A stretch of DNA of 64,000 nt from Candidatus Babelota bacterium. GTDB taxonomy: Bacteria; Babelota; Babeliae; Babelales; Vermiphilaceae. The stretch is taken from assembly GCA_049325595.1 (NCBI GenBank), contig JBMOLF010000015.1, positions 32,001-96,000 of the forward strand, written 5' to 3'. Shown piece after piece: positions 11,816 through 59,316 of this stretch. The position numbers and the translations under genes are program-made. The notes beneath the pieces were generated by a model, which worked only from the letters and a program-made list of their open reading frames with translations, searched no databases and was not told where the DNA came from. Position 1 is the stretch's first letter. Every line of letters starts with the position of its first letter.

Positions 11816-14497
11816 ATGGCAACGCAAACGCCTCATGATAAGGCTGAAAATAAAGTTAAGCCGGTCTTGATTGAACAAGAATTAAAAACTTCATTTCTTG
11901 ATTATGCAATGTCGGTGGTAGTAAGTCGTGCTATACCTGATATTCGTGACGGGCTTAAGCCAGTTCATCGTCGCGTTTTGTATGCTATGTATCAGCAAGG
12001 ATTTCATCACAACAAGCCGTATCATAAGTCTGTTCGTGTGGTGGGTGACGTGCTTGGAAAATATCACCCACATGGTGACCAAGCGGTATACAATACCATG
12101 GTTGGCATGGTACAAGATTTCTCTAAACGTTATCCCTTATTAGATGGTCAAGGTAACTGGGGATCTGTTGATGGAGATAATGCAGCAGCAATGCGTTATA
12201 CCGAAGTTCGTATGGAAAAAATTGCCCAAGAACTTCTTGCAGATCTTGATAAAGAAACGGTTCGTTTTGTACCAAACTTTGACGAATCAACGGTAGAGCC
12301 AGTAATTTTACCAAGTAAATTACCACATTTGTTAATAAATGGTACCACAGGTATTGCCGTAGGTATGGCAACATCGATACCACCTCACAATTTAGGTGAA
12401 GTAATTGATGCATGTTTGTTGCTGCTTGAAAATCCACATGCTTCTGACGAAGAAATTTTTCAAAAAGTTCCGGCACCCGATTTTCCAACCGGTGGTATTA
12501 TTTGTGGAAGAGGCGGCGTTATAAAAGCTTATAAAACCGGACGTGGCAATTTAATTTTGCGTGGTGTTGTTGAAGTAGAAGAAACAAAAAAAGGCACTAG
12601 TTTGGTGGTCACTGAGTTACCATACATGGTTAATAAAGCAGCGCTTGCCGTGCAAATTGCTGATTTGTTGCGTGATAAAGTAATTGAAGGTATTACCAAT
12701 ATTAAAGATGAAACTGATAAAAAAGGTATGCGCTTAGTGCTAGAAATTAAGCGTGGTGAATCTCCTCAAGTGATTCTTAATCAGTTATATAAACATACTC
12801 CATTGCAAACATCAGTTAATATGTTAATGCTGGGGTTGCTGGATAATCGCCCATTAATTTTCTCTTTGCGCCAATTGCTTGAACAATTCTTGTATCATCG
12901 TCGCGAAATAATTTATAAACGTACGGTTTATGATCTTAAAAAAGCGCAAGATCGTGAGCATATTTTAACTGGTTTTATTATTGCGCTTAAAAATATCGAT
13001 GAAGTTGTTGCTCTTATTAAAAATTCAACTTCAGCCGAAGAAGCAATAACTAAGCTTAACAAACGGTTCTTGTTAACTGCTGAACAAAGCAAAGCTATTT
13101 TAGAAATGCGCTTGCAACGCTTAACGGGTCTTGAGCAAGATAAAATTTATCAAGAAATGGAAGAGCTCAAAAAAACAATTGCATATCTAAAATCTATCAT
13201 TGAAAATGAAGAAATTCTTAAAAAAGAAATTGTTAATGAGTTAGTTGAAATCAAAAAAGAATATGCTGATCCTCGCCGTACTAAGATAGAAGGTGCTATT
13301 GATATTCTTACTGAGGCAGATTTAATTCCCGACGAAGAAGTAGTCGTAACACTTACGCATAAAGGTTATATTAAACGGGTACCATTAAGCACCTATGGCT
13401 TGCAGCATCGTGGCGGTAAAGGCAAGATGGGCATGGCAACGCTTGAAGGGTCTGAAGATGTAATTCAAGATCTGTTTGTGGCTAAAAACCATGATGAGCT
13501 TTTATTCTTTACCAATCTTGGTCGTGTTTACAGTATGCGTGTATTTGAAGTTCCTGAGGCATCTCGTATTGCAAAAGGTCGTGCGGTTATTAACTTGCTG
13601 CCATTAACTCCTGAAGAAAAAGTAGTTAAATTATTGTGCACTAGAGATTTAGCAGGCAAAAACTTAGTTATGCTTACTAAACATGGCATTATTAAGCGTA
13701 CTGATGCGACAGAATTTGAAAAAATTCGCTCAACTGGTATTCGTGCAGCCACTCTTAAAGAAGGTGATGAATTAGTGTTCTGTGCATTAAGTTCAGGAAC
13801 TGATTCTATTATCATTGCAACTGCACATGGTCAAGGTATTCGCTTCAAAGAAGATGAAGTGCGTGTAATGGGCCGTCAAGCTGCGGGTGTAATTGGTATC
13901 CGTATGAAGGAAGATGATTACGTTGTTGGTATGGAAGTTATTTCTGATGGTGGCGACATTCTCTTTGCAACAGAAAATGGCTACGGAAAACGAGTAAGTA
14001 TTGCTGATTTCCGTTTAGCGCATCGAGGTGGTTTAGGTGTTAGAACAATTCCAACAACAGCTCGTAACGGTAAGGTAATAGGTCTTGTTTTTGTAACTGA
14101 TCGTTCTAATATTCTTCTTATTGATAAAGCTGGTAAGATTATTCGACTTTCATCTGCTGAAGTTCGCACTATGGGTCGACAAGCCCAAGGGGTACGCTTA
14201 ATTAAACTTGATGAAGGTCAAAAACTTTCTACCATAGTTGCATTTGAAGAAGAAGATAATGATCCAACCAATTCTTCATCTCATCAAGAATCACAAACAA
14301 GTGGCAGCAGTTCTGGGGCAGTAAAGAAAGATCTTTATGTCCAAAGCAGCCAATTGCCCGCTGAAGATTCCATTGATTCTCAAGAAGAATATGAGGGGGG
14401 CATGCAAGACGATAACGTTTTTGATATTGATAATGCAGTTCCCGTATTTAGTGCAGATGATTCTGAAACTGAAAATGATCCATTTGCTCAATTTTAG
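11816..14497 (+). CDS. gyrA: DNA gyrase subunit A
   Basis: DGLKPVHRR, YHPHGD, AAMRYTE, GyrA-box QHRGGKG, acidic C-terminal tail. Confidence 0.98.
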   Translation: MATQTPHDKAENKVKPVLIEQELKTSFLDYAMSVVVSRAIPDIRDGLKPVHRRVLYAMYQQGFHHNKPYHKSVRVVGDVLGKYHPHGDQAVYNTMVGMVQDFSKRYPLLDGQGNWGSVDGDNAAAMRYTEVRMEKIAQELLADLDKETVRFVPNFDESTVEPVILPSKLPHLLINGTTGIAVGMATSIPPHNLGEVIDACLLLLENPHASDEEIFQKVPAPDFPTGGIICGRGGVIKAYKTGRGNLILRGVVEVEETKKGTSLVVTELPYMVNKAALAVQIADLLRDKVIEGITNIKDETDKKGMRLVLEIKRGESPQVILNQLYKHTPLQTSVNMLMLGLLDNRPLIFSLRQLLEQFLYHRREIIYKRTVYDLKKAQDREHILTGFIIALKNIDEVVALIKNSTSAEEAITKLNKRFLLTAEQSKAILEMRLQRLTGLEQDKIYQEMEELKKTIAYLKSIIENEEILKKEIVNELVEIKKEYADPRRTKIEGAIDILTEADLIPDEEVVVTLTHKGYIKRVPLSTYGLQHRGGKGKMGMATLEGSEDVIQDLFVAKNHDELLFFTNLGRVYSMRVFEVPEASRIAKGRAVINLLPLTPEEKVVKLLCTRDLAGKNLVMLTKHGIIKRTDATEFEKIRSTGIRAATLKEGDELVFCALSSGTDSIIIATAHGQGIRFKEDEVRVMGRQAAGVIGIRMKEDDYVVGMEVISDGGDILFATENGYGKRVSIADFRLAHRGGLGVRTIPTTARNGKVIGLVFVTDRSNILLIDKAGKIIRLSSAEVRTMGRQAQGVRLIKLDEGQKLSTIVAFEEEDNDPTNSSSHQESQTSGSSSGAVKKDLYVQSSQLPAEDSIDSQEEYEGGMQDDNVFDIDNAVPVFSADDSETENDPFAQF

Positions 14498-48704: not shown

Positions 48705-48995
48705 ATGGCGATAACCATAACAGAAGTAAAAGTTTATCCAGCAAAAGAAAATGGTAGACTTAAGGCATATGCAACAATAGTCTTTGAAAATAGCTTCATA
48801 GTGCGTGATCTCAAAGTGATCGAAGGCAACAAAGGATATTTTGTATCAATGCCATCGCGTCGCCGCAAGGATGGAACATTTAGAGATATTGTTCATCCCT
48901 TAAACTCTGAGACTCGTAAGCTTATAGAAGAGCAAGTGATCCAAGAATTTAAAAAAGTAATGGATCTTGAAGAAGATTATAATTTAGCAGTTTAA
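48705..48995 (+). CDS. spoVG: SpoVG nucleic-acid-binding regulator
   Basis: ITEVKV, LKAYATIVF, FVSMPSRR.KDGTFRDIVHPLNSETR motifs. Confidence 0.93.
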   Translation: MAITITEVKVYPAKENGRLKAYATIVFENSFIVRDLKVIEGNKGYFVSMPSRRRKDGTFRDIVHPLNSETRKLIEEQVIQEFKKVMDLEEDYNLAV

Positions 48996-49042
48996 AATTA
49001 TTTTTTTATCTGCTATACTTTGAAAAGTCTAAAAAATAGCGT

Positions 49043-49116
49043 TGGGGCGTAGCCAAGTGGTAAGGCACCGGGTTTTGGCTCCGGCACCGGAGGTTCGAAT
49101 CCTCCCGCCCCAGCCA
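49043..49116 (+). tRNA. tRNA-Gln(TTG)
   Basis: Acceptor stem TGGGGCG/CGCCCCA; D loop AGCCAAGTGGTAAGGC; anticodon loop TTTTGGC; T loop GGTTCGAATCC; encoded CCA. Confidence 0.96.
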
Positions 49117-49200
49117 GTCTTCGTTCTCAAGAACTTCTTCTGGCATCCTTCTACGTTAAAAACTTCGTAGGACAAGAGCCATCAAATTTAAAAGCGATTT
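49112..49200 (+). repeat. Structured direct repeat R1, copy a (overlaps tRNA 3' end)
   Basis: 89 bp; 5 mismatches to 54563-54651. Confidence 0.92.
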
Positions 49201-49272
49201 GTATTTTTACAAGTTGCTTTTTTTGTTTTTAAATGTGATTTAATATAGTTATTTTTATAGTCATAGTAATTA

Positions 49273-49680
49273 ATGCAGAATTTTCATATGAAAAAAGTTA
49301 TTGCGGCCGTTTTTGCAAAAGATGGCAAAGTTCTGATAGCGCAACGAGCAAAAAAAGATGTGCTTTTTGGTAAATGGGAATTTCCTGGTGGCAAGCTTGA
49401 AGACAATGAAACCGAACATGAGTGTTTAAAGCGTGAACTATTTGAAGAGCTTGGTATACATGTTGAAGTCGGTTCTTACATCTGCTCAAGTTATTTTGAA
49501 CACAAAAACGCACCCTATGAAATGAGGGCATATTTTGTTACTTCATATTCCGGTGAATTTGTTTTGCATGAGCATCAAGAAATCAAATGGGTTGCTCATG
49601 AAGAACTATCTGAGTACGATATGCCAGAACCGGATAAGCCTATAGTGGAAAAGCTACTTGAAATTAATATGAAGAAATAA
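49273..49680 (+). CDS. Nudix hydrolase (MutT/NudG-like), copy a
   Basis: WEFPGGKLEDNETEHECLKRELFEELG Nudix box; start may be 49288. Confidence 0.92.
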   Translation: MQNFHMKKVIAAVFAKDGKVLIAQRAKKDVLFGKWEFPGGKLEDNETEHECLKRELFEELGIHVEVGSYICSSYFEHKNAPYEMRAYFVTSYSGEFVLHEHQEIKWVAHEELSEYDMPEPDKPIVEKLLEINMKK

Positions 49681-49862
49681 ATAATTAATTGTTAAATTTT
49701 AATTAAACAGACTAACGTTAGTATTAGGTTATATCACTAACGCTTTTTTTATTAAGTTTTATTTGTTCATTAAGAAGCCTAAATAAAATCTGCTAGACTC
49801 TTTTGATAGATTGAATGTGCAAAATAAGTTCCTTAATAAACAACTTTCAATAGTTGTAACTG

Positions 49863-50279
49863 CTATTTACTCTTTTTGCGAGCATGAATAGCTTTTGATG
49901 TTGGTGAAGAAGTAGGTTGTTTTTTAAGTGGGCTTTTCTTAATAGGAGTGGTAATAGCTACCGTTACACTTGCTTTGGTTGTTGATCGTTTTTTTGGAGC
50001 AACCGTTATGGTTATTGCTTGGCCTAAAATATTTAAAAAGCGAAAAAGCCTTTCAAGAGAAAATCCTGATAATTTCCCTTTACTCAGCGCAGAAATTTTT
50101 GGTTGATCAATAGAAAGCAGTTCAGCTGCTGCTGCTTGCGTAAGGCCTTGTTGCTTGATTAAAGTATTGATTTGTCGGGCAAGCTCTGCCTTAGCAAGAC
50201 GTTCTTCTGGATTTGCAACACCAAGATCAGCAAATACATTTCCTGAACTTACTTCATAATCATTAGTATGTTTTTTCAT
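49863..50279 (-). CDS. XRE-family HTH antitoxin
   Basis: SSGNVFADLG..LTQAAAAELLSIDQPKISAL..GFSLERL; directly downstream of the toxin. Confidence 0.9.
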   Translation of the reverse strand: MKKHTNDYEVSSGNVFADLGVANPEERLAKAELARQINTLIKQQGLTQAAAAELLSIDQPKISALSKGKLSGFSLERLFRFLNILGQAITITVAPKKRSTTKASVTVAITTPIKKSPLKKQPTSSPTSKAIHARKKSK

Positions 50280-50283
50280 GGCC

Positions 50284-50646
50284 TTACTTCTTCTTAAATT
50301 TTTCTTTATAAATTTCTTCAGCTAATTTCAATCTACTTTTTATAAGCTCTATGTCTTGTTGTGGTGTTTTAATGCCCTGCTTTGATTTCTTTTGAAAAGC
50401 ATGAAGCACAAACACTACTTCAGGCATGGTAACCGTGTACACTACCCGATAGGTTCCAGCAGCATCAGAATCTTTAATTTCAATAACACCAGCACTACCA
50501 AATCCTTTAAGAACTTTTGCATGTTCAGGCATTTGACCCTTTTGAGCAAGGTATAACCCATAGCCCATGGAGTCTATCACCTCATCAGGGAGATCTTGTA
50601 AATCTTTTTTGCTTGAGCCAATCCAGATCAGTTCTTTGTGTTTCAT
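50284..50646 (-). CDS. RelE/HigB-type (phage Gp49-like) toxin
   Basis: WIGSSKKDL, GTYRVVY and VLHAFQKKSKQG.KTP motifs. Confidence 0.9.
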   Translation of the reverse strand: MKHKELIWIGSSKKDLQDLPDEVIDSMGYGLYLAQKGQMPEHAKVLKGFGSAGVIEIKDSDAAGTYRVVYTVTMPEVVFVLHAFQKKSKQGIKTPQQDIELIKSRLKLAEEIYKEKFKKK

Positions 50647-50761
50647 TTTTGCTACTCAGTTAAAATTATACCATATTTGGCATAATTTAACAATAATTTA
50701 ACTCAAAGGCAAAAAGTATGCAAAATTGTTTATAGTTAGATTATTTCTTTAAGCAGCAACC

Positions 50762-51898
50762 CTATCTTTTTATAAATTTCTTATACTGCTTATTAATCGG
50801 TTCGAATTTGACCAATTGTTCCCGCAATGCCTTAAAATGATCAAGAGCCCTAGACAGTTGTATCTTGCTTACATCTGCAATGAGTCGTTGCCAGCTTCGC
50901 GGCGAGCAGCGTGAAAACATAGTTCTTAATTCACGCATGTCCATGATTTCAAGCACTTTTTTAAAGCCATACAGCTGTAATAGTTGTTTTGGCCCTAAAT
51001 TGGGATTATTAAACATTAAATCAACGAGCAAGGCTTTACCATTGGTTGATTGGTAATCAAGCAATAGCGGGCGCTTGCTAACGAGTTCATCAAAATAATG
51101 TAACAAAACCTTTTTAGAAATCGCGGGTTTGAACATTTTTTTAAAGGTTACATCAGTTTTAATACCAAGCTTGGTGAACAACTCTTTAATTTTAACGCGC
51201 TTGTTTAACCGCACTTCCATGCGTAGCACTTCAAACTTAGTGCGTCTTTTTTGCAATTGTTCGTGGGTGGTTAATTGAAGTTCGTTATCTTTTTCAACTG
51301 CTCGCTTATTACTGGTCTGAGCTTTTTCAAGATCGCGAATTTTATCATAGAAAGCGACTTCATAATAATTGGTAAGCCATTTAAAACTGTGGCCGGCATT
51401 GCGATAGGCAGTTTCATTTACATCAAGTGAGAGCTTGGTGTTAGCTTCTTTGATTTTGTTAATGTAAAAATGTGGCGTTGAGCCATCGGTTAAACACATG
51501 TTTTTTGAATAATGGATGGCAGATACGGGTGCTGATGCGATTGCAGTTGAGGTTGTGCATATGCCCATTGCTTGTAGCGTTGCTACTAGTTTGTTAATGA
51601 TGGATGGAAAATCTTTGTAACGCAGTTCGCTAAAATTGTTGCCAAATACGAGCTTGGGTAATGACAGTTCAATTTTAAGAATAATTTCTGGTTTGCCTAA
51701 AAGATTATAACGATATGCAAGAGTAAGACGCGGCTTATAGATTCCTTTTGTGAGTTCTTTTTTTAAAGGGTTTTGCTTTGATTGCATGCCACGTTCAATT
51801 TTTTTTGAAAGTGCCCATGCTGCTGATGGGATAAATAACTCTGGATCGGTAATTTCAAACAAATCTCTACTCAGGGTAATAACTATCGTGTCAATCAT
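50762..51898 (-). CDS. Putative rolling-circle replication initiator (Rep_trans / filamentous phage gpII-X / CRI-like)
   Basis: MIDT start, ELSLPKLVFGNN, VSAIHYSKN, AY, AFYDK and LRMEVRL occur in the order expected for this superfamily. Confidence 0.62.
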   Translation of the reverse strand: MIDTIVITLSRDLFEITDPELFIPSAAWALSKKIERGMQSKQNPLKKELTKGIYKPRLTLAYRYNLLGKPEIILKIELSLPKLVFGNNFSELRYKDFPSIINKLVATLQAMGICTTSTAIASAPVSAIHYSKNMCLTDGSTPHFYINKIKEANTKLSLDVNETAYRNAGHSFKWLTNYYEVAFYDKIRDLEKAQTSNKRAVEKDNELQLTTHEQLQKRRTKFEVLRMEVRLNKRVKIKELFTKLGIKTDVTFKKMFKPAISKKVLLHYFDELVSKRPLLLDYQSTNGKALLVDLMFNNPNLGPKQLLQLYGFKKVLEIMDMRELRTMFSRCSPRSWQRLIADVSKIQLSRALDHFKALREQLVKFEPINKQYKKFIKR

Positions 51899-52015
51899 GA
51901 TGCTCGCTACAAGGTGATATTATTTTGCATGCATCAAGGATAAAAGAGATGGTAATAAAGACAAGCGTAAATGATTAGTTAATATTTGAGAATTTCGTGT
52001 ATTGGTTCGTGACTT

Positions 52016-52243
52016 TTATCGAGTAAGCAATAGATAAAGAATTACAGCGATAATAATTGCTAATAAAGAAGCCCGCTCAATGAGCGAGCCTACTGTGCGC
52101 CCTTGATTGGGAGCTTTTGATTGTTTGGTTTTTGAACTGCTTATACGCTTATCAATGGTGGCCAGTATCTGAAAGAACGTAGCCAATCGTTGTTGATCTG
52201 AAAAAGACAATAGTCTTTGTGTTGTTTGCTTTTTTAGAGACAT
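52016..52243 (-). CDS. Small hypothetical protein upstream of rep
   Basis: 75 aa ORF co-oriented with rep; amphipathic RLATFFQILATIDKR helix; hydrophobic C-terminus. Confidence 0.45.
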   Translation of the reverse strand: MSLKKQTTQRLLSFSDQQRLATFFQILATIDKRISSSKTKQSKAPNQGRTVGSLIERASLLAIIIAVILYLLLTR

Positions 52244-52303
52244 AAAAAAATTGTTGATTGTTAGATCAATTTAAAAATAAATAATACTTAAGTGGATTAC
52301 TTA

Positions 52304-53206
52304 GAGCCTATCCGGAAATTAAATTTTTCTAAGAACAATGATCTGGCAAGCAAATTGAAGTAGAGCTAGATGATTGTTTGCTAACTTATCCCATCGTATT
52401 AAAAGTCGCCTGAATCGAGTTATCCAAGAAAAAGTGCGTTCAACGCCCCATCGAAATTTAAGGTTAACTTTTTGAGAAATTTGATTTCTGCGCTTGTTGC
52501 AACTAATTCTGAAAGAGTACCCTCGACTTGCCAAATATTTTCGAATAAAAGATGCATCGAATGCTGCGTCTAGTTCAATGGTTTTGAATGGTAATATTCG
52601 ACTATAAATTTGATTGGCAATTGTTGAAATAAATGTTTTTGAATCATGCGTATTACCAGCAAAAAGATTTATTGCCAACGGAATGCCATTTTTATCAATT
52701 AAAAGAGCTTTTTTTGTTCCTAACTTCCTCCGATCAACTGGACTTAAGCCTGTTTCTTGGCCACCAAGCGGAGCTTTTGCATGACTGCAATCAAAGGATT
52801 GATTTTGCAAATTAAGCCCTATAAATCGATCATATTTTTCAAGAGCATGATGCCATGCTTGTGCAAAAAAATCAGTTTTTACTAGTCTTTGAAAGTGCTC
52901 ATGAATTGTTGATGAAGGACCAAAACATTTTGGTAAAGCGTTCCATTGACAGCCAGTTTTCAATAGATAAAATATGCCTTGTAAAATTGCTAATGGCTCA
53001 CTTTTAGGCCTGCCTTTTTTAATTTTTTGTGGCATAAATTTTAAAAGATGTAATACTTGTTCATCATTCATCAAAAACTTTTTTGATATGCATGTTGCAA
53101 AGCATGTATTCATAAAATCCTCTCTTCTTTTTTTTCATCGGAAATTTAGAGAGGATTTTACTTTTTAATACCTATTTTTTCAAATTATGATTTTCCGGAT
53201 AGGCTC
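52304..53206 (-). mobile_element. IS5-family insertion sequence (903 bp)
   Basis: Perfect 15-bp terminal inverted repeats GAGCCTATCCGGAAA (52304-52318, 53192-53206); 3-bp TTA target duplication (52301-52303, 53207-53209). Confidence 0.93.
52319..53113 (-). CDS. IS5-family DDE transposase
   Basis: GIFYLLKTGCQWNALP, FDCSHAKAP, ELDAAFD and RWGVERTFSWI..FRRL..RWD motifs. Confidence 0.93.
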   Translation of the reverse strand: MNTCFATCISKKFLMNDEQVLHLLKFMPQKIKKGRPKSEPLAILQGIFYLLKTGCQWNALPKCFGPSSTIHEHFQRLVKTDFFAQAWHHALEKYDRFIGLNLQNQSFDCSHAKAPLGGQETGLSPVDRRKLGTKKALLIDKNGIPLAINLFAGNTHDSKTFISTIANQIYSRILPFKTIELDAAFDASFIRKYLASRGYSFRISCNKRRNQISQKVNLKFRWGVERTFSWITRFRRLLIRWDKLANNHLALLQFACQIIVLRKI

Positions 53207-53367
53207 TTAATAAGAAAGCTCAAATGAAGAGCTGAATGATTCAGAAATGCATTTGCAATCTAAGAGCCATGATGACGTATGCAAATGCTCGTGCGGCCTA
53301 TAGATGTATGGATTCATGGGATTACTCTCTTGCATAGATTGCTTTTGATGTTACTACTTGATTGGCA

Positions 53368-53395
53368 AGTATATCTAATTTAATGGTTAACTCAA
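53368..53395 (-). promoter_or_regulatory. Putative sigma70 promoter in R2a, pointing toward rep
   Basis: TTGAGT-N16-TATACT; the R2b equivalent is TTGCAC-N16-TATACT (58042-58069). Confidence 0.5.
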
Positions 53396-53414
53396 GCGAA
53401 ATCGAGTGAAAAGC

Positions 53415-53447
53415 AAAGAAGGCTGTATCTGTTACAGCCTTCTTTTT
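53415..53447. terminator. Bidirectional-looking intrinsic terminator
   Basis: AAAGAAGGCTGTA / TACAGCCTTCTTT stem. Confidence 0.8.
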
Positions 53448-53462
53448 AAACAGCTTAACTAT

Positions 53463-54293
53463 TTAATCTTTTAATTTTTCTAAATATTTTATAGCTTCTT
53501 GATTGCCACTATCTTTGATCCATTCACGGAGTGTTTTACGATCTAGACTCCAGCTAAATTCCAGTGGTTGATTATTAATAAAATTTGAGCCAAATATTTT
53601 TTGTACCGTATCAATAATTAAAGCAAGAATTTGTGTATTGGAGGTATTCTCTACACCTAAATAGATTTTATATTCATCTTCGATTCCTAAGTAGAAAACT
53701 TTGAGGAGCTCATTTCCAATTTTATTAGTGAAGGTAAATCGATTATTGATAAAAAAATTATTAAGGGCACCTAAAATTATGGCACTTACTTCTTCGCTTT
53801 TGCATAAAATTCCTTCATTGGAAGTTGATACATTGAATAATGACAAGTAATTTTTCAAATCTTGTTTTGTTATTGTCTGCTTTTGATTTTTTATGCTATT
53901 TATTAAACTATTAATTTGACCTTTTGCATCCGGAATCTTTGCAAAATGAACTAATGCTTCTTTTAAAATTCTTAAAGTTTTTTGTTGAATGTTGGGATTA
54001 TCATAATTACCAGAAGCCAATGCTGTTAAAGAAAGATCAAATTTTTGATTGAGTATTTTTTTAATAGATTCTTTGTTTTCTTTTATATAGTGAGCGATTG
54101 CTTTATTAACTTGTGCATAGTTACTTAAAAGAGTAAGTGCTTCATCACGAGTGCTTGATGTATTTAATATTTGTTTTATTATTTCTGTAGTTTGTAACTC
54201 ATAAGGCAAATCAGTAAATTTTAGTAGGTTTTTTTCCATAGTGGAAACATCCATGACTATCAATGAGCCTAAGAGTAAATAATATAATTTCAT
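53463..54293 (-). CDS. Secreted F-box-like protein (paralog of 60558-61373)
   Basis: Signal peptide then FTDLPYELQTTEIIKQIL; shares TRDEALTLL.NYAQVNKAIA.YIKENK with the 60558 paralog. Confidence 0.7.
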   Translation of the reverse strand: MKLYYLLLGSLIVMDVSTMEKNLLKFTDLPYELQTTEIIKQILNTSSTRDEALTLLSNYAQVNKAIAHYIKENKESIKKILNQKFDLSLTALASGNYDNPNIQQKTLRILKEALVHFAKIPDAKGQINSLINSIKNQKQTITKQDLKNYLSLFNVSTSNEGILCKSEEVSAIILGALNNFFINNRFTFTNKIGNELLKVFYLGIEDEYKIYLGVENTSNTQILALIIDTVQKIFGSNFINNQPLEFSWSLDRKTLREWIKDSGNQEAIKYLEKLKD

Positions 54294-54562
54294 ACCAGGT
54301 CCTTCAGAGGTATTTATTTTCTTAGTATATATCCACTAATATACCAAAATAACAATTCAAATTGTAATATTTTTTTGTTTAGATTGCATAGATATAAATA
54401 AACTAACTTATTAAAATGCATCAGAAGTAATTTTTTGTAAAAGAGATTCAAATTTTTTAACTAAATTTTTGTTTTAATCCTAAAACTGAATATGCGGTTG
54501 GGATGCGTTATAAAGTAAATCCAAACTCAATTTTTCCGTTCCTGAACGCGTCTATTAAGTCT

Positions 54563-54651
54563 AGCTAGTCTTCGTTCTCAAGAACTTTGTCTAGCATTCT
54601 TCTACGTTAAAAACTTCGTAGGACAAGAGCCATCAAATTTAAAAGCGATTT
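54563..54651 (+). repeat. Structured direct repeat R1, copy b
   Basis: Lies 5451 bp downstream of copy a; 84 of 89 bases identical. Confidence 0.92.
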
Positions 54652-54949
54652 TGTAGAAATACTGACTTTTTTATTGTTTTCTTTTTAATGCGCATGGAAT
54701 TTTTTGCGTTTACATTTCATAATAAAAAAATTGAATCTATTCTGCAGTAACTAGTTCAGAGGCTCATTCATAGCTTTTCCAAAATAATAATTATATGTAG
54801 CTTAATCCTTAAATAATTTAAGCTACACTAATTTTAAGTGGGAGGTTATGATAGCGATTTAAATTAGAAAAATAGAAATATATAAATAATAATGTACAAA
54901 AGAAGAGCTCTAATATAATTAAATCTTTTTTATCATATATCTGTTTTTA

Positions 54950-56139: not shown

Positions 56140-56679
56140 ATGAAAAAACATTTTGTGTGTTTCTTGTACTTAGGATCTATTGTTGCTGGAGAACAAATTG
56201 ATTTGCTCAAGAACTATAATCTGCGAGAGCCATATTATCCATCGTATGTTGATTTAAATCACTATGGGTTTTGTTTACGCGCTGCAAAAGATTTGCCTGC
56301 GGGAACCGTTGTGGCGACGGCAAATTTTGAAGAAAGCAATAATCCTTATATTGCCAATCACTCTGATCCTGAATATAAATATGTTGCATTAGTAGATGTG
56401 AATGCTGAAGGTATTCCAACGTGGGGAAGAATTAGAGGAAAATGGGCATTTTGTAATCATTCCTGTGATCCTAACTGTGATATTAAGCCCGGATGGATTA
56501 TTACCACGAATCGTTTTATACAACAAGGTGATGAACTTACTACTTCTTATGATGCATATATACCAGGTTTTGCATGGCCTGATAATTGGAATTTTTCCTG
56601 TTTATGTCAGACTGCCAACTGCAAGAAATTTATTACTGGGTATCGATTTGATATGATATATCCGCTAGCTCGTCAATAA
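56140..56679 (+). CDS. SET-domain lysine methyltransferase with post-SET Cys motif, probably secreted
   Basis: GFCLRA, NHSCDPN, ELTTSY and CLCQTANC motifs; short N-terminal signal. Confidence 0.88.
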   Translation: MKKHFVCFLYLGSIVAGEQIDLLKNYNLREPYYPSYVDLNHYGFCLRAAKDLPAGTVVATANFEESNNPYIANHSDPEYKYVALVDVNAEGIPTWGRIRGKWAFCNHSCDPNCDIKPGWIITTNRFIQQGDELTTSYDAYIPGFAWPDNWNFSCLCQTANCKKFITGYRFDMIYPLARQ

Positions 56680-56700
56680 GATATACAACGGGATGTATCA

Positions 56701-57099
56701 ATGAATAATTCGGTTACAAAAAAAGTAATTGCGGCAGTATTGGTAAAAGATAATACCGTGCTGATAGCCCAGCGCGCAAAGCCAGATGTGAACTATGATA
56801 AATGGGAATTTCCTGGTGGCAAGCTTGAAGACAATGAAACCGAACATGAGTGTTTAAAGCGTGAACTATTTGAAGAGCTTGGTATACATGTTGAAGTCGG
56901 TTCTTACATCTGCTCAAGTTATTTTGAACACAAAAACGCACCCTATGAAATGAGGGCATATTTTGTTACTTCATATTCCGGTGAATTTGTTTTGCATGAG
57001 CATCAAGAAATCAAATGGGTTGCTCATGAAGAACTATCTGAGTACGATATGCCAGAACCGGATAAGCCTATAGTGGAAAAGCTTCTTGAGATTATTTAA
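56701..57099 (+). CDS. Nudix hydrolase, copy b
   Basis: Nudix box; 56799-57083 appears identical to 49371-49655. Confidence 0.92.
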   Translation: MNNSVTKKVIAAVLVKDNTVLIAQRAKPDVNYDKWEFPGGKLEDNETEHECLKRELFEELGIHVEVGSYICSSYFEHKNAPYEMRAYFVTSYSGEFVLHEHQEIKWVAHEELSEYDMPEPDKPIVEKLLEII

Positions 57100-57775: not shown

Positions 57776-57902
57776 AAATCTTCCATTTTTACTAAATTTA
57801 ATAGCCAATACTAAAAAGATTACACGCTAATCTTCAAAGTTCAACTTATATGGCTATAAGTTAATCTTTTCTTGTTTTTTATAGGTATCTTAATTATAAA
57901 AA

Positions 57903-58122
57903 GAATGATTCAGAAATGCATTTGCAATCAGAAAGCCATGCATAAATTATGCAGGTGCTCGTGCTGCCTGATAATGTAGTTGTATAGATTCATGAGTGTA
58001 CTCTTTGTTTTGATTGCTTTTATGTTACTACTTGGTGGGCAAGTATATCTAATTTAATGATTAGTGCAACTGGCTAGGATTGAAAAAATAAAGAAGGCTG
58101 TGTACCTTGCAGCCTTCCTTTA
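57903..58122. repeat. Structured repeat R2, copy b
   Basis: Homologous to 53234-53447, including the terminator GAAGGCTG/CAGCCTTC. Confidence 0.88.
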
Positions 58123-58127
58123 TTTGA

Positions 58128-58550
58128 TTATCTATTTAATTTATTGATAGTTTCCAAATATTTAATTGCTTCTTGATTATTGGACTTTCTCACCGTATCG
58201 AGTAGGGTTCCTTCGGAATTATAACCCATTTCTTTATCAATAAATTTCGGACCAAATATTTTTACTGCTGTATTAATAATTAAAGTTATAATCTGTGTCC
58301 AATTTTTATCTTTACCCATTGTGCCAATATGATCTTTCAATAAGTCGACAAACTCGAGCTCAGAAAGTTTGAAATCCACCTTATTATTACTAAAAGCGTT
58401 GTTTATTGTACCTAACACTACGGCAGCAAGCTGAAATTTATTGGGATATCCCGATCCAAGTATTTTTCCTAAATATTCTATATCACCACCTATGCCTAGA
58501 AAAACACTATCACTTCTCTCTTTAGTGTTAATATAAGTTACTAAAATTAA
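58128..58550 (-). pseudogene. 5'-truncated paralog of the 53463/60558 family (C-terminal half only)
   Basis: Frame stays open upstream of GTG 58418 to ~58550 with no ATG or signal peptide; TQIITLIINTAVKIFGPKFID..NQEAIKYLE matches the paralog C-termini. Confidence 0.7.
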
Positions 58551-58551
58551 G

Positions 58552-59316
58552 TTACTGAATTCCCAGCTGAGCTTTTACCCGTGCATCGATGTCGTTAATA
58601 ATTTGCATGGCTTCTTCTGGGGAAAGTTGTTGATAGAGCTTTTGCTCTAGAAAATCGATTACTATAGGCATTTTTTCACTGTACTCCGCGGTTACATCTT
58701 GATCCATTATCGCTTTTTGAGCTAGAAATAATAATTCCTTAATATTTTTTAAGCTAAAGATATCAGGATTGTATTTACTTAGTAGCTCTAATACAGGAAC
58801 TGAAATTCCATATTCTACCGCATAAGAATCAAGAGTCCATCCATTGAACTGGCGGTACTTTGGATTATATCCTTTATCGAGCCATTGTTTTAGAGAATTT
58901 AAATCTCCGCTTCGAATATATTCCAAGGCAGTGTTAAATTGTTGATCATTAGTAGAAATTACATTAAAGCTTGCATTTGGGTTTACTTTTTTAAGCCACT
59001 CTTCAGCTAATTTAGTGTTAAGGGCTCGTGCGATTGCAGTTTCAGAGCCAGGAAATTTTGTGAGCAATGAGTTTAGAACACCAAAAAGTATTGTTGTGTT
59101 GTTGGTGATTTGATCATAAAGATCTTTATTTACAAAGCGTATATTTTGTAAATTTGTTATAGCATCTGAAATTGATGGTGCATCTACAACATGCTTTAAA
59201 ATTTCTGTTTTGAGTTCGGGTAATAATTGCTCTAATGGAAATGATGTCTGTTCTTTTTCCATACTAACTAATTGTGTGCTTGCTATGGCTAAAGTGAGTA
59301 ATAAAATTTTTTTCAT
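58552..59316 (-). CDS. Secreted F-box-like protein with a degenerate ankyrin repeat
   Basis: AGGAG SD; signal peptide; LEQLLPELKTEILKHV; GDLNSLKQWLDKGYNP..NGWTL. Confidence 0.7.
   Translation of the reverse strand: MKKILLLTLAIASTQLVSMEKEQTSFPLEQLLPELKTEILKHVVDAPSISDAITNLQNIRFVNKDLYDQITNNTTILFGVLNSLLTKFPGSETAIARALNTKLAEEWLKKVNPNASFNVISTNDQQFNTALEYIRSGDLNSLKQWLDKGYNPKYRQFNGWTLDSYAVEYGISVPVLELLSKYNPDIFSLKNIKELLFLAQKAIMDQDVTAEYSEKMPIVIDFLEQKLYQQLSPEEAMQIINDIDARVKAQLGIQ

Follow-up and report, generated by a model that had tools for sequence, protein, structure and literature searches.

Probable decayed copy of a serine-recombinase and Rep integrative element beside tRNA-Gln in a Babelota genome

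A unit of 5451 bp, bounded by two 89-nt direct repeats (R1 and R2) at the 3' end of a transfer RNA (tRNA) gene, tRNA-Gln, and encoding a 378-aa Rep-like protein, has been analysed in a genome of a Candidatus Babelota bacterium (1.29 Mb, 24 contigs). The window, that is, the whole analysed stretch of 64,000 nt, corresponds to G000:C15:32001-96000. Most probably, the unit is an immobilised, decayed copy of an integrative element of Babeliales that combines a large serine recombinase (LSR) with Rep. Judging from the anatomy of the junctions, an intact element uses its own LSR to integrate within the final bases of a tRNA gene; the excised circle presumably replicates via the Rep_trans/G2P-like initiator, and the element would carry a toxin–antitoxin (TA) pair and secreted cargo. 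The copy in the window retains an intact Rep, a small open reading frame (ORF), the TA pair, the cargo and attR, and seems to have lost the LSR gene together with the tRNA-side arm, both replaced by a repeated tRNA trailer (R1).

A sequence-only reading had proposed that the unit may be mobilised without an integrase, its hairpin repeats serving either as origin and terminus for Rep or as recombination sites. The described direct repeats, the 5451-bp size of the unit, and the order and sizes of its genes agree with our repeat finder and ORF scans. Still, given the retained attR and the trailer anatomy, the 89-nt repeats are two copies of a tRNA trailer and not Rep origins. As both LSR and its arm are lost, site-specific excision is presumably no longer possible, and probably only homologous recombination between R1 and R2 could free the unit as a 5451-bp circle.

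Element family and junction anatomy

The rep gene is patchily distributed, being present in 47 of 201 sampled genomes of the phylum with no more than seven matches in any one of them; fragments riddled with stops are numerous. G107, the one other sampled genome of the same genus, yielded no match. The window's own genome contains three intact Rep copies, 58–60% identical to each other, and one degraded copy. For the analysis of genomic context we took 20 kb around 20 foreign copies, selected as well-scoring full-length Rep genes on longer contigs, and the three own copies. A tRNA with its 3' end facing rep is observed in 18 of the 20 foreign places (tRNAs Asp-GTC, Glu-TTC, Arg-TCT, Arg-TCG, Arg-CCT and Gln-TTG), which bears out the earlier suggestion of a mobile element at a tRNA.

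Moreover, 18 of the 23 stretches contain a member of one ORF family, of about 485 aa, that constitutes an LSR with the Resolvase, Recombinase and Zn_ribbon_recom domains. In 15 of the 20 foreign copies there is an LSR of 300 aa or longer, and in 14 it adjoins the tRNA on the Rep strand; in nine of these 14, as well as in the own copy on contig C10, the LSR stop codon is located exactly 12 nt inside the tRNA. One foreign place has a 514-aa LSR and no detected tRNA, and five (L054, L057, L061, L063, L067) have no LSR or only its fragments. The canonical order is tRNA, LSR, zero to three variable genes (often a Gp49/HTH pair), Rep, small ORF, cargo. The closest genomic copy, in G062 (L051), has a 71% identical Rep, is located at tRNA-Gln and carries an LSR. 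As the family is LSR-borne, with the recombinase abutting the tRNA in 14 of 20 foreign places, the integrase-free state is a minority, decayed one, and the idea of an integrase-free mechanism is not upheld. The related prediction that Rep homologs should be found next to tRNAs and similar repeats without integrases holds for the tRNAs (18 of 20), and fails both for the repeats, absent beside all 22 other Rep-bearing stretches, and for the integrases, the LSR being mostly present.

The unit of the window shares with the family Rep with the upstream small ORF facing the tRNA 3' end, and an attR, albeit decayed, where the tail-coding arm is followed by a displaced tRNA end. An LSR gene abutting the tRNA is lacking, and tblastn with the LSR from contig C10 of the same genome yields no match on contig C15; hence the copy is a remnant rather than an autonomous member. 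Domain PF00589 is matched on C15 only at 14.5, 160.7 and 170.0 kb, all outside the window, in line with the earlier statement that the window contains no recombinase. The features that form the two ends of the unit are as follows.

49043..49116, plus strand: tRNA-Gln(UUG), the integration target (ARAGORN; Rfam tRNA, 63.6 bits), whose last 5 nt, AGCCA, open R1
49112..49200: R1, comprising the tRNA end, a 66-nt trailer block and the start of the native trailer (repeat finder, junction alignments)
49201..49232, plus strand: diverged continuation of the repeat, a terminator hairpin of the tRNA trailer with a T-run (fold z -3.1; homologous to the G107 trailer)
54460..54567, minus strand: element arm of attR, a remnant of the recombinase C-terminal tail with two stops (tail-profile matches 54511-54564 and 54460-54507)
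54563..54651: R2, comprising the displaced tRNA-Gln 3' end (AGCTA against AGCCA) and the native trailer, the chromosomal side of attR

The tRNA-Gln gene is the single tRNA predicted in the window by ARAGORN. R1 and R2 are identical at 84 of 89 positions and spaced by 5451 nt; all five mismatches fall within the first 36 nt, the final 53 nt being identical. The repeat overlaps with the tRNA by 5 nt only (AGCCA), confirming that it is the sequence downstream of the tRNA and not a duplicated tRNA 3' half, and extends weakly past R into the diverged terminator tail, which had been overlooked before. In the 1.29-Mb genome there are no full-length copies of R other than R1 and R2, and three partial copies of 43–48 nt each (82–85% identical). 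A classical tRNA island, with a tyrosine integrase and a duplicated 3' half of the tRNA, was considered and rejected: there is no PF00589 match beside the tRNA, and the repeat shares just 5 nt with it.

In canonical copies the CCA of the tRNA is followed at once by the antisense of the last LSR codons. The far end is formed by a conserved arm (core CCGTTCCTGAACGCGTC), about 9 nt, the displaced last 6 nt of the tRNA and trailer DNA; the displaced tRNA-Asp end CCGCCA is observed in L059, L063, L068 and on contig C19, and the order arm – displaced tRNA end – trailer, in the window, L059, L063 and on C19. Region 54511-54567 of the window consists of the arm, 9 nt and TAGCTA (tRNA-Gln ends with CAGCCA), after which R2 begins; this arrangement identifies R2 as the chromosomal side of a normal attR. 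Hence, the earlier remark that the repeats do not form a classical attL/attR pair stands as regards the lack of tRNA-half duplication and does not stand for R2. R1, in turn, occupies the place that in canonical copies belongs to the LSR-end arm (P') and the recombinase gene. Repeats beginning 5 nt inside the tRNA are also present in L063 (23 nt) and L068 (94 nt, exact), and among the 19 tRNA-adjacent copies only these two and the window have direct repeats at the ends; the -5 register of the repeat is a property of the crossover site of the family. The arm in the window is 83% identical to G107:390373-390489.

The empty site of G107 shows tRNA-Gln, CCA, and then a trailer with a terminator corresponding to the final portion of R plus the diverged stretch that follows it; by eye, the terminator tail of R2 is nearer to the G107 trailer than that of R1. 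The 66-nt block, which makes up most of R, is missing from the G107 trailer. Its cousins are located directly after tRNA-Arg(CCT), tRNA-Arg(TCG) and the transfer-messenger RNA (tmRNA) of the same genome, and in L059 one follows the displaced tRNA-Asp end; no Rep is present at these cousin sites. As R is absent beside 22 of 22 other Rep-bearing stretches and its cousins are Rep-free, we consider R to be a kind of tRNA trailer and not a site for Rep.

The repeats are no more structured than shuffled sequences (z -1.0, -0.5, -0.7), contrary to their previous description; a z of -3.1 is obtained only if the adjoining terminator is included (49117-49232, which holds the hairpin). An Rfam scan of 48900-54900 yields the tRNA only, the Trp_leader row (22.6 bits) falling below the gathering score of 41. 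Two of the five R1/R2 mismatches (49115/49142 against 54566/54593) are compensatory in a predicted stem, GCCAG...CTGGC against GCTAG...CTAGC, which may reflect either chance or selection on the trailer hairpin. The trailers following tRNA-Arg(CCT), tRNA-Arg(TCG) and tmRNA (G000:C15:225216-225522, 228036-228330; G000:C7:69359-69860) are long and mutually similar; their repeats start with GTCTTCG or TGCTTCG right after CCA, end near GAGCCA, and contain inverted copies of each other.

Contigs of four sequencing runs were aligned to 48900-54900. The X2 contig (6930 nt, from another study), about 88–94% identical to the window, contains the left flank with tRNA-Gln up to 49116, 3533 nt that are not in the window, the Nudix gene (49291-49667), 275 other nt, Rep with the small ORF (50861-52299), and then directly 53206 onward, with no IS5 insertion sequence (IS). 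In both X2 and X4 the TA pair is replaced, 49667 being joined to 50861 via 275 other letters; in the X4 contig, which comes from a fourth study and has the same join of Nudix and Rep, the tRNA end is followed by sequence similar to the LSR-end arm of canonical copies. As the contigs of the relatives carry it inside the element, Nudix belongs to the accessory genes of this lineage of elements. About 3.5 kb present beside the tRNA in the relatives, a stretch that would contain the LSR, is lacking from the copy in the window; the 3533 extra nt also disagree with an integrase-free mechanism. Run X1, probably the source sample, is the only one that contains the whole stretch, and its contigs break at the 53-nt and 285-nt identical tracts; the read depth, one value per contig, is 28.1 for the left flank, 31 for the unit and 24.3 for the right flank, with no clear excess.

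Using a tail profile seeded with the G107 copy, we located the arm in 18 stretches, on the Rep strand and at the distal end of the element; the implied element sizes are 5.4–11 kb, with one case of 14 kb. In 16 of these 18 the junction Trp codon, the reverse complement of the displaced CCA, starts the tail peptide in frame, and this frame is shared with the LSR where it runs into the tRNA at the opposite junction; the reading extends for 26–46 codons from Trp to the stop. Mean pairwise nucleotide identity of the tails by codon position equals 0.49, 0.61 and 0.41, which is the pattern of coding sequence under selection. L068 has a second, truncated LSR end immediately before the arm, providing a natural uninterrupted reading from the LSR end into the tail. 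As the tail is coding and in frame across the junction, the excised circle should encode a longer LSR that is truncated by integration: the LSR frame would cross attP, and integration would swap the tail of about 35 aa for two or three codons and a stop provided by the tRNA.

Among LSR relatives from the databases, 72 of 120 end within four residues of the junction Trp, and at least 35 more run through the antisense tRNA; since the ends cluster at the junction or run into the tRNA, nearly all deposited copies are of the integrated, tail-less form. The ends of P0316 and P0322 are tail-like by eye only. The tail remnant of the window (54460-54567, minus strand) is interrupted by two stops, TAG as the junction codon and an internal TAA, which is expected, as no recombinase gene is left to use the tail. 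We tentatively suggest as a possibility, though not a likely one, that LSR exists in two forms, the circle encoding the conserved tail of about 35 aa and the integrated form being tail-less and ending in the tRNA, and that the tail acts as a directionality or stability switch. The full-length protein could then serve integration and the truncated one, excision or silence, as a serine counterpart of Mx8 IntP.

Other copies and traces of the family deserve separate mention. G000:C10:99639-105360 (L071) is a seemingly complete sister element at tRNA-Arg(TCT) of the same genome. Its serine recombinase is intact, has 485 aa and stops 12 nt into the tRNA; the other parts are a Gp49+HTH pair, a 60% identical Rep, a small ORF, a secreted 183-aa protein and a tail-coding arm at 105330-105354. 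L073 (G000:C10:282430-284112) is an LSR beside tRNA-Asp at the end of C10, seen as two tblastn pieces and possibly frameshifted; it probably continues into the 7.6-kb contig C19 (L072), which has Rep and the displaced CCGCCA end. L074 (G000:C7:6916-8437) is an LSR beside tRNA-Glu in two overlapping pieces, and L075 (G000:C17:203-484), an arm with a scar of the LSR end. In L068 (G170:C17, ~13376-13469) the tail arm is preceded by an exact 94-nt repeat of the tRNA end and the LSR 3' end. Such a chromosomal junction of the attP type hints at tandem or concatemer insertion and deletion of the outer copy. A short ORF (~81 aa), GIY-YIG-nuclease-like by eye, is located in or beside the elements at nine foreign loci (L056, L057, L061, L063-L067, L069), directly beside the tRNA in L057, L063 and L067, and often accompanies recombinase-less copies; a similar ORF follows the tmRNA of the window's genome (C7:69.5-69.8 kb). 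L050 (G107:C1:386000-395000) is a tail-arm remnant in a Rep-less genome, and its neighbours, three tandem 141–146-aa paralogs and a 1018-aa protein, are arranged like a polymorphic toxin with immunity genes.

Gene content of the unit and its flank

The genes and other features between the two ends, and the chromosomal Nudix gene beyond them, are as follows.

49273..49680, plus strand: Nudix hydrolase gene 1, accessory (Pfam NUDIX, 2.8e-20)
49863..50279, minus strand: HTH_37 antitoxin, HigA-like (Pfam, 7e-27)
50284..50646, minus strand: Gp49/HigB-like toxin of the TA pair (Pfam PF05973, 3e-21)
50762..51898, minus strand: Rep, predicted Rep_trans/G2P-like initiator, 378 aa, ORF intact
52016..52243, minus strand: small ORF, 75 aa, upstream of rep (homologous small ORFs upstream of Rep on C10 and C19)
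52297..53213, minus strand: IS5-family insertion (NF033580, E 8e-53; transposase 52319-53113; inverted repeats 52297-52335 and 53175-53213)
53214..53460, minus strand: conserved non-coding region upstream of the small ORF and rep (aligns with own C10 and C19 and with the remnant 57808-58128)
53463..54293, minus strand: 276-aa cargo protein with a hydrophobic N-terminus (local paralog family)
56701..57099, plus strand: chromosomal Nudix 2, adjoining the SET-domain gene 56140-56679 (order kept in G107)

Rep of the window has no match to a Pfam family at E <= 0.1, nor at E <= 1, and a profile search of PDB sequences yields only chance-level rows (E >= 0.5); PHROGs and NCBIfam have no match for Rep, the small ORF or the cargo. 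The protein has 1247 database relatives, those listed being mostly 56–84% identical, and a profile search retrieves 1271 cluster representatives. An AlphaFold (AF2) model built from 34 homologs (pLDDT 79, pTM 0.78) was compared with 48,161 PDB representatives. The best structural match is RepDE (4cwc_A; Z 8.9, 224 residues, root-mean-square deviation (rmsd) 4.5, identity 9%, VIA-align), followed by RepSTK1 (4cij_A; Z 8.5, 202 residues, rmsd 4.1), and the next after this Rep_trans pair are TATA-binding proteins with Z 5.5. In Foldseek the RepDE and RepSTK1 entries are also at the top, at E from 2.5e-3 to 3e-2, none being at or below 0.001.

Phage_CRI (PF05144) is matched by two of 34 Rep relatives (best E 3.1e-6) and by seven of 40; eight divergent relatives, two of the 34 and six of the 40, reach its gathering score (>21.7 bits), and PF02486 (Rep_trans) has no match among the 34 or 40 relatives scanned. 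The invariant residues in the 34 sequences are H129-Y130, Y184-D185-K186 and E223/R226/E228/R230, all of them kept by Rep of the window. The conserved Tyr in the F-Y-D-K motif recalls the active-site region of RepDE and RepSTK1, which we assume by resemblance and not by residue-by-residue mapping. Rep has an additional C-terminal helical domain (residues ~285-354). Because of the structural matches to Rep_trans proteins, the Phage_CRI matches among the relatives and the invariant residues, we accept the previous designation of the protein as Rep-like, the model suggesting a very divergent relative of Rep_trans/G2P rolling-circle initiators. A transposon of the IS91/ISCR/Helitron type was rejected, as there is no match to HUH Y2 transposase Pfam families and the fold is Rep_trans, not HUH.

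In L058, whose Rep has 480 aa, the N-terminal extension of this protein is weakly matched by the small ORF (E 3e-4), which may be a conserved partner of Rep, fused to it in some copies and forming one functional unit with it. Some Rep homologs of 452–488 aa have an N-terminal extension (P0035, P0039, P0063, P0071 and others; L056, L058). The IS5 insertion sits between the small ORF and the conserved region 53214-53460, parting rep from its upstream region. It is missing in the relatives, contigs from two other runs joining 52299 to 53206; as this joint skips 906 nt, the unit has 4545 bp without the IS, in agreement with the size given previously for the unit without the IS and its duplication. 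The conserved region 53214-53460 is, by its alignment between elements, a better candidate than R for the promoter and/or the double-strand origin.

Gp49+HTH pairs analogous to the TA pair of the window are also present in the own copy on C10 and in L058. The 276-aa cargo protein has paralogs on C19, at 58.1-59.3 kb of the window and in G107. Its previous description as F-box-like finds no support in Pfam, as none of seven cargo paralogs has an F-box match (E <= 0.5) and the 276-aa protein itself has none at E <= 0.1; the protein atlas gives a top score of 0.88, with ankyrin-like leads only.

Downstream of R2 there are the SET-domain gene and Nudix 2, in the same order as in G107, and then a remnant of the rep-upstream region and more cargo paralogs; the flank of tRNA-Gln is an island built by successive insertions. 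The SET-domain protein (56140-56679; Pfam 1.1e-12), with a eukaryote-type domain, adjoins Nudix in G107 as well. Region 57808-59316 contains the rep-upstream remnant (57903-57978 matches 53234-53308) followed by the cargo paralogs, and is probably an older gutted element.

Origin of the repeats and competing explanations

Could R1 and R2 be sites at which Rep nicks and releases or re-inserts the DNA between them, as at tandem origins, so that the unit is a working integrase-free rolling-circle element? Rep is intact and has the Rep_trans fold, the unit is bracketed by two direct repeats in a window without a recombinase, and one pair of R1/R2 mismatches is compensatory in the predicted stem (GCCAG/CTGGC against GCTAG/CTAGC). 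We nevertheless find this explanation very improbable, and with it the role of hairpin origin and terminus ascribed to the repeats. R is found beside none of the 22 other Rep-bearing stretches, its cousins after tRNA-Arg (twice) and tmRNA are Rep-free, it is no more structured than shuffles, and R2 is a canonical attR with a decayed recombinase tail; moreover, the family is LSR-borne, and another region conserved between elements sits upstream of rep. Descent of the unit from a filamentous prophage (inovirus) with a G2P-like Rep is hardly credible: the weak Phage_CRI matches of the Rep relatives, the small size of the unit and the hydrophobic end of the small ORF would fit it, but no morphogenesis ATPase (Zot-like) or coat family was found by Pfam, PHROGs and NCBIfam among the scanned ORFs of the unit, nor such genes among those of other copies, and the accessory genes are TA pairs and secreted proteins of the host-interaction type.

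Within the reading of the unit as a decayed LSR–Rep element, the origin of R1 is a separate question, on which the Nudix genes bear. Nudix 1 and Nudix 2 are duplicates (49269-49568 and 56697-56996), which had been overlooked, and Nudix 1 is a mosaic, its part 49371-49655 being identical to 56799-57083 (285 nt) and its 5' 80 nt, about 70% identical. The differences between X2 and the window in Nudix 1, among those listed, are mostly in the 3' part; together with the mosaic pattern this points to gene conversion from chromosomal Nudix 2. The putative conversion looks recent and spans 7.4 kb. R1 could have arisen by a Campbell-type event, in which an aberrantly excised circle, devoid of the LSR arm and carrying attR with adjoining trailer DNA, re-integrated by homologous recombination at an empty tRNA-Gln trailer; we regard this as rather doubtful. 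The event predicts the observed order R1, Nudix 1, TA pair, Rep, cargo, arm, R2, and fits the differing tails, that of R2 being closer to the G107 trailer; the left edge of the repeat is the crossover register of the family, and homologous exchange has been active locally, as seen from the 285-nt identical Nudix tract. On the other hand, the captured flank would comprise merely ~170 nt, since the Nudix gene of the relatives is inside the element, no donor arrangement has been observed, and deletion plus conversion within one lineage fits equally well. Other histories considered for R1 each meet with a difficulty: unequal crossover at the Nudix copies predicts that the wrong half of the gene is identical, tandem duplication followed by LSR excision needs an additional deletion, and plain segmental duplication leaves the attR anatomy unexplained.

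Several points weigh against the preferred interpretation as an immobilised, decayed LSR–Rep element. Neither of the considered routes to R1, aberrant excision with homologous re-integration or tandem duplication with subsequent excision, explains both R1 and the Nudix mosaic without extra steps. The putative LSR in the 3533 unread letters of the relatives rests on one 30-letter loose end. As the 66-nt block is absent from the G107 trailer, the label of native trailer relies on the cousins after other tRNAs. The tail profile has no match at E < 0.01 among the 120 database LSRs. The readout of circles and excision is limited, as the X1 contigs break at the repeats, with no joint listed for X1. 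Finally, Rep is intact with all family-invariant residues kept, so residual activity is possible; recombinase-less remnants in which Rep and its conserved upstream region are kept might be set free through homologous recombination of R1 with R2 and then multiply by the rolling-circle mode.

Significance and comparison with known systems

Dependentiae/Babeliales are obligate protist parasites with genomes of 1–2 Mb, and we know of no conjugative helper in Babeliales. One small element family, present in 47 of the 201 genomes of the phylum and at no fewer than six tRNA species, places secreted cargo of the host-interaction type beside tRNAs, and thus constitutes a concrete vehicle for gene flow and the building of effector islands in Babeliales; the copy in the window illustrates the decay of such elements into fixed islands. 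Large serine integrases are widely used as genome-engineering tools, and a recombinase frame crossing attP is a testable regulatory design for this class. The family is apparently unpublished: no description has been found in the Dependentiae/Babeliales papers searched, and the Chromulinavorax paper, in the passages considered, mentions only Xer-type recombinases.

Compared to the plasmid initiators RepD/RepDE and RepSTK1, Rep of this family is integrated into the chromosome, in a protist parasite of the Gram-negative type; it differs from RepDE and RepSTK1 (4cwc, 4cij) by the low identity (9%), the lack of a sequence-level PDB match and the extra C-terminal helical domain. Tandem CTXphi prophages release circles by rolling-circle replication, and the repeats there are whole origins of tandem copies. 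What the unit has in common with them is a Rep of the G2P-like type and an integrated element flanked by direct repeats, whereas the repeats here are copies of a tRNA trailer that are not associated with Rep elsewhere.

Streptococcal integrative and mobilizable elements combine a site-specific integrase, a Rep_trans initiator or relaxase and a TA pair, Rep being thought to maintain the excised circle and/or to act as a relaxase (PMC5704250). The likeness to the Babeliales family covers the small integrated element, the integrase, the Rep_trans-type protein, the TA module and the 3' end of a conserved gene as the site (PMC5704250). Still, the streptococcal elements listed there have tyrosine integrases at ribosomal-protein genes (PMC5704250), as opposed to LSR at tRNA ends, and Rep here is separate and very divergent, the protein of the window having no Pfam match and its copy, no integrase.

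Tycheposons of Prochlorococcus have tyrosine recombinases in 910 of 937 elements, replicate via primase/helicase and span 10–20 kb (10.1101/2020.12.28.424599). They share with the Babeliales elements tRNA targeting, an inward-facing integrase, a small replication module and cargo, as well as tRNA-side islands in streamlined genomes, degraded elements and tandem junctions (10.1101/2020.12.28.424599); in contrast, the Babeliales elements use LSR and a rolling-circle initiator and span 5.4–11 kb.

As for the recombinase frame, phage Mx8 has its attP within int, and the gene acquires a new 3' end upon integration (PMC6070905); the "suicidal" integrases of the SSV type, with attP inside the integrase gene, are an archaeal analogue (PMC7253208). 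In all these systems the attachment site lies within the recombinase frame, and integration alters or removes the C-terminal end (PMC6070905; PMC7253208); however, Mx8 IntP and SSV integrases are tyrosine recombinases, and the Babeliales LSR loses only a tail of about 35 aa. Relative to the streptococcal elements and tycheposons, which they resemble by function, the Babeliales elements stand out by an LSR at tRNA ends, by the strong divergence of their Rep family and by an LSR frame that runs across attP.

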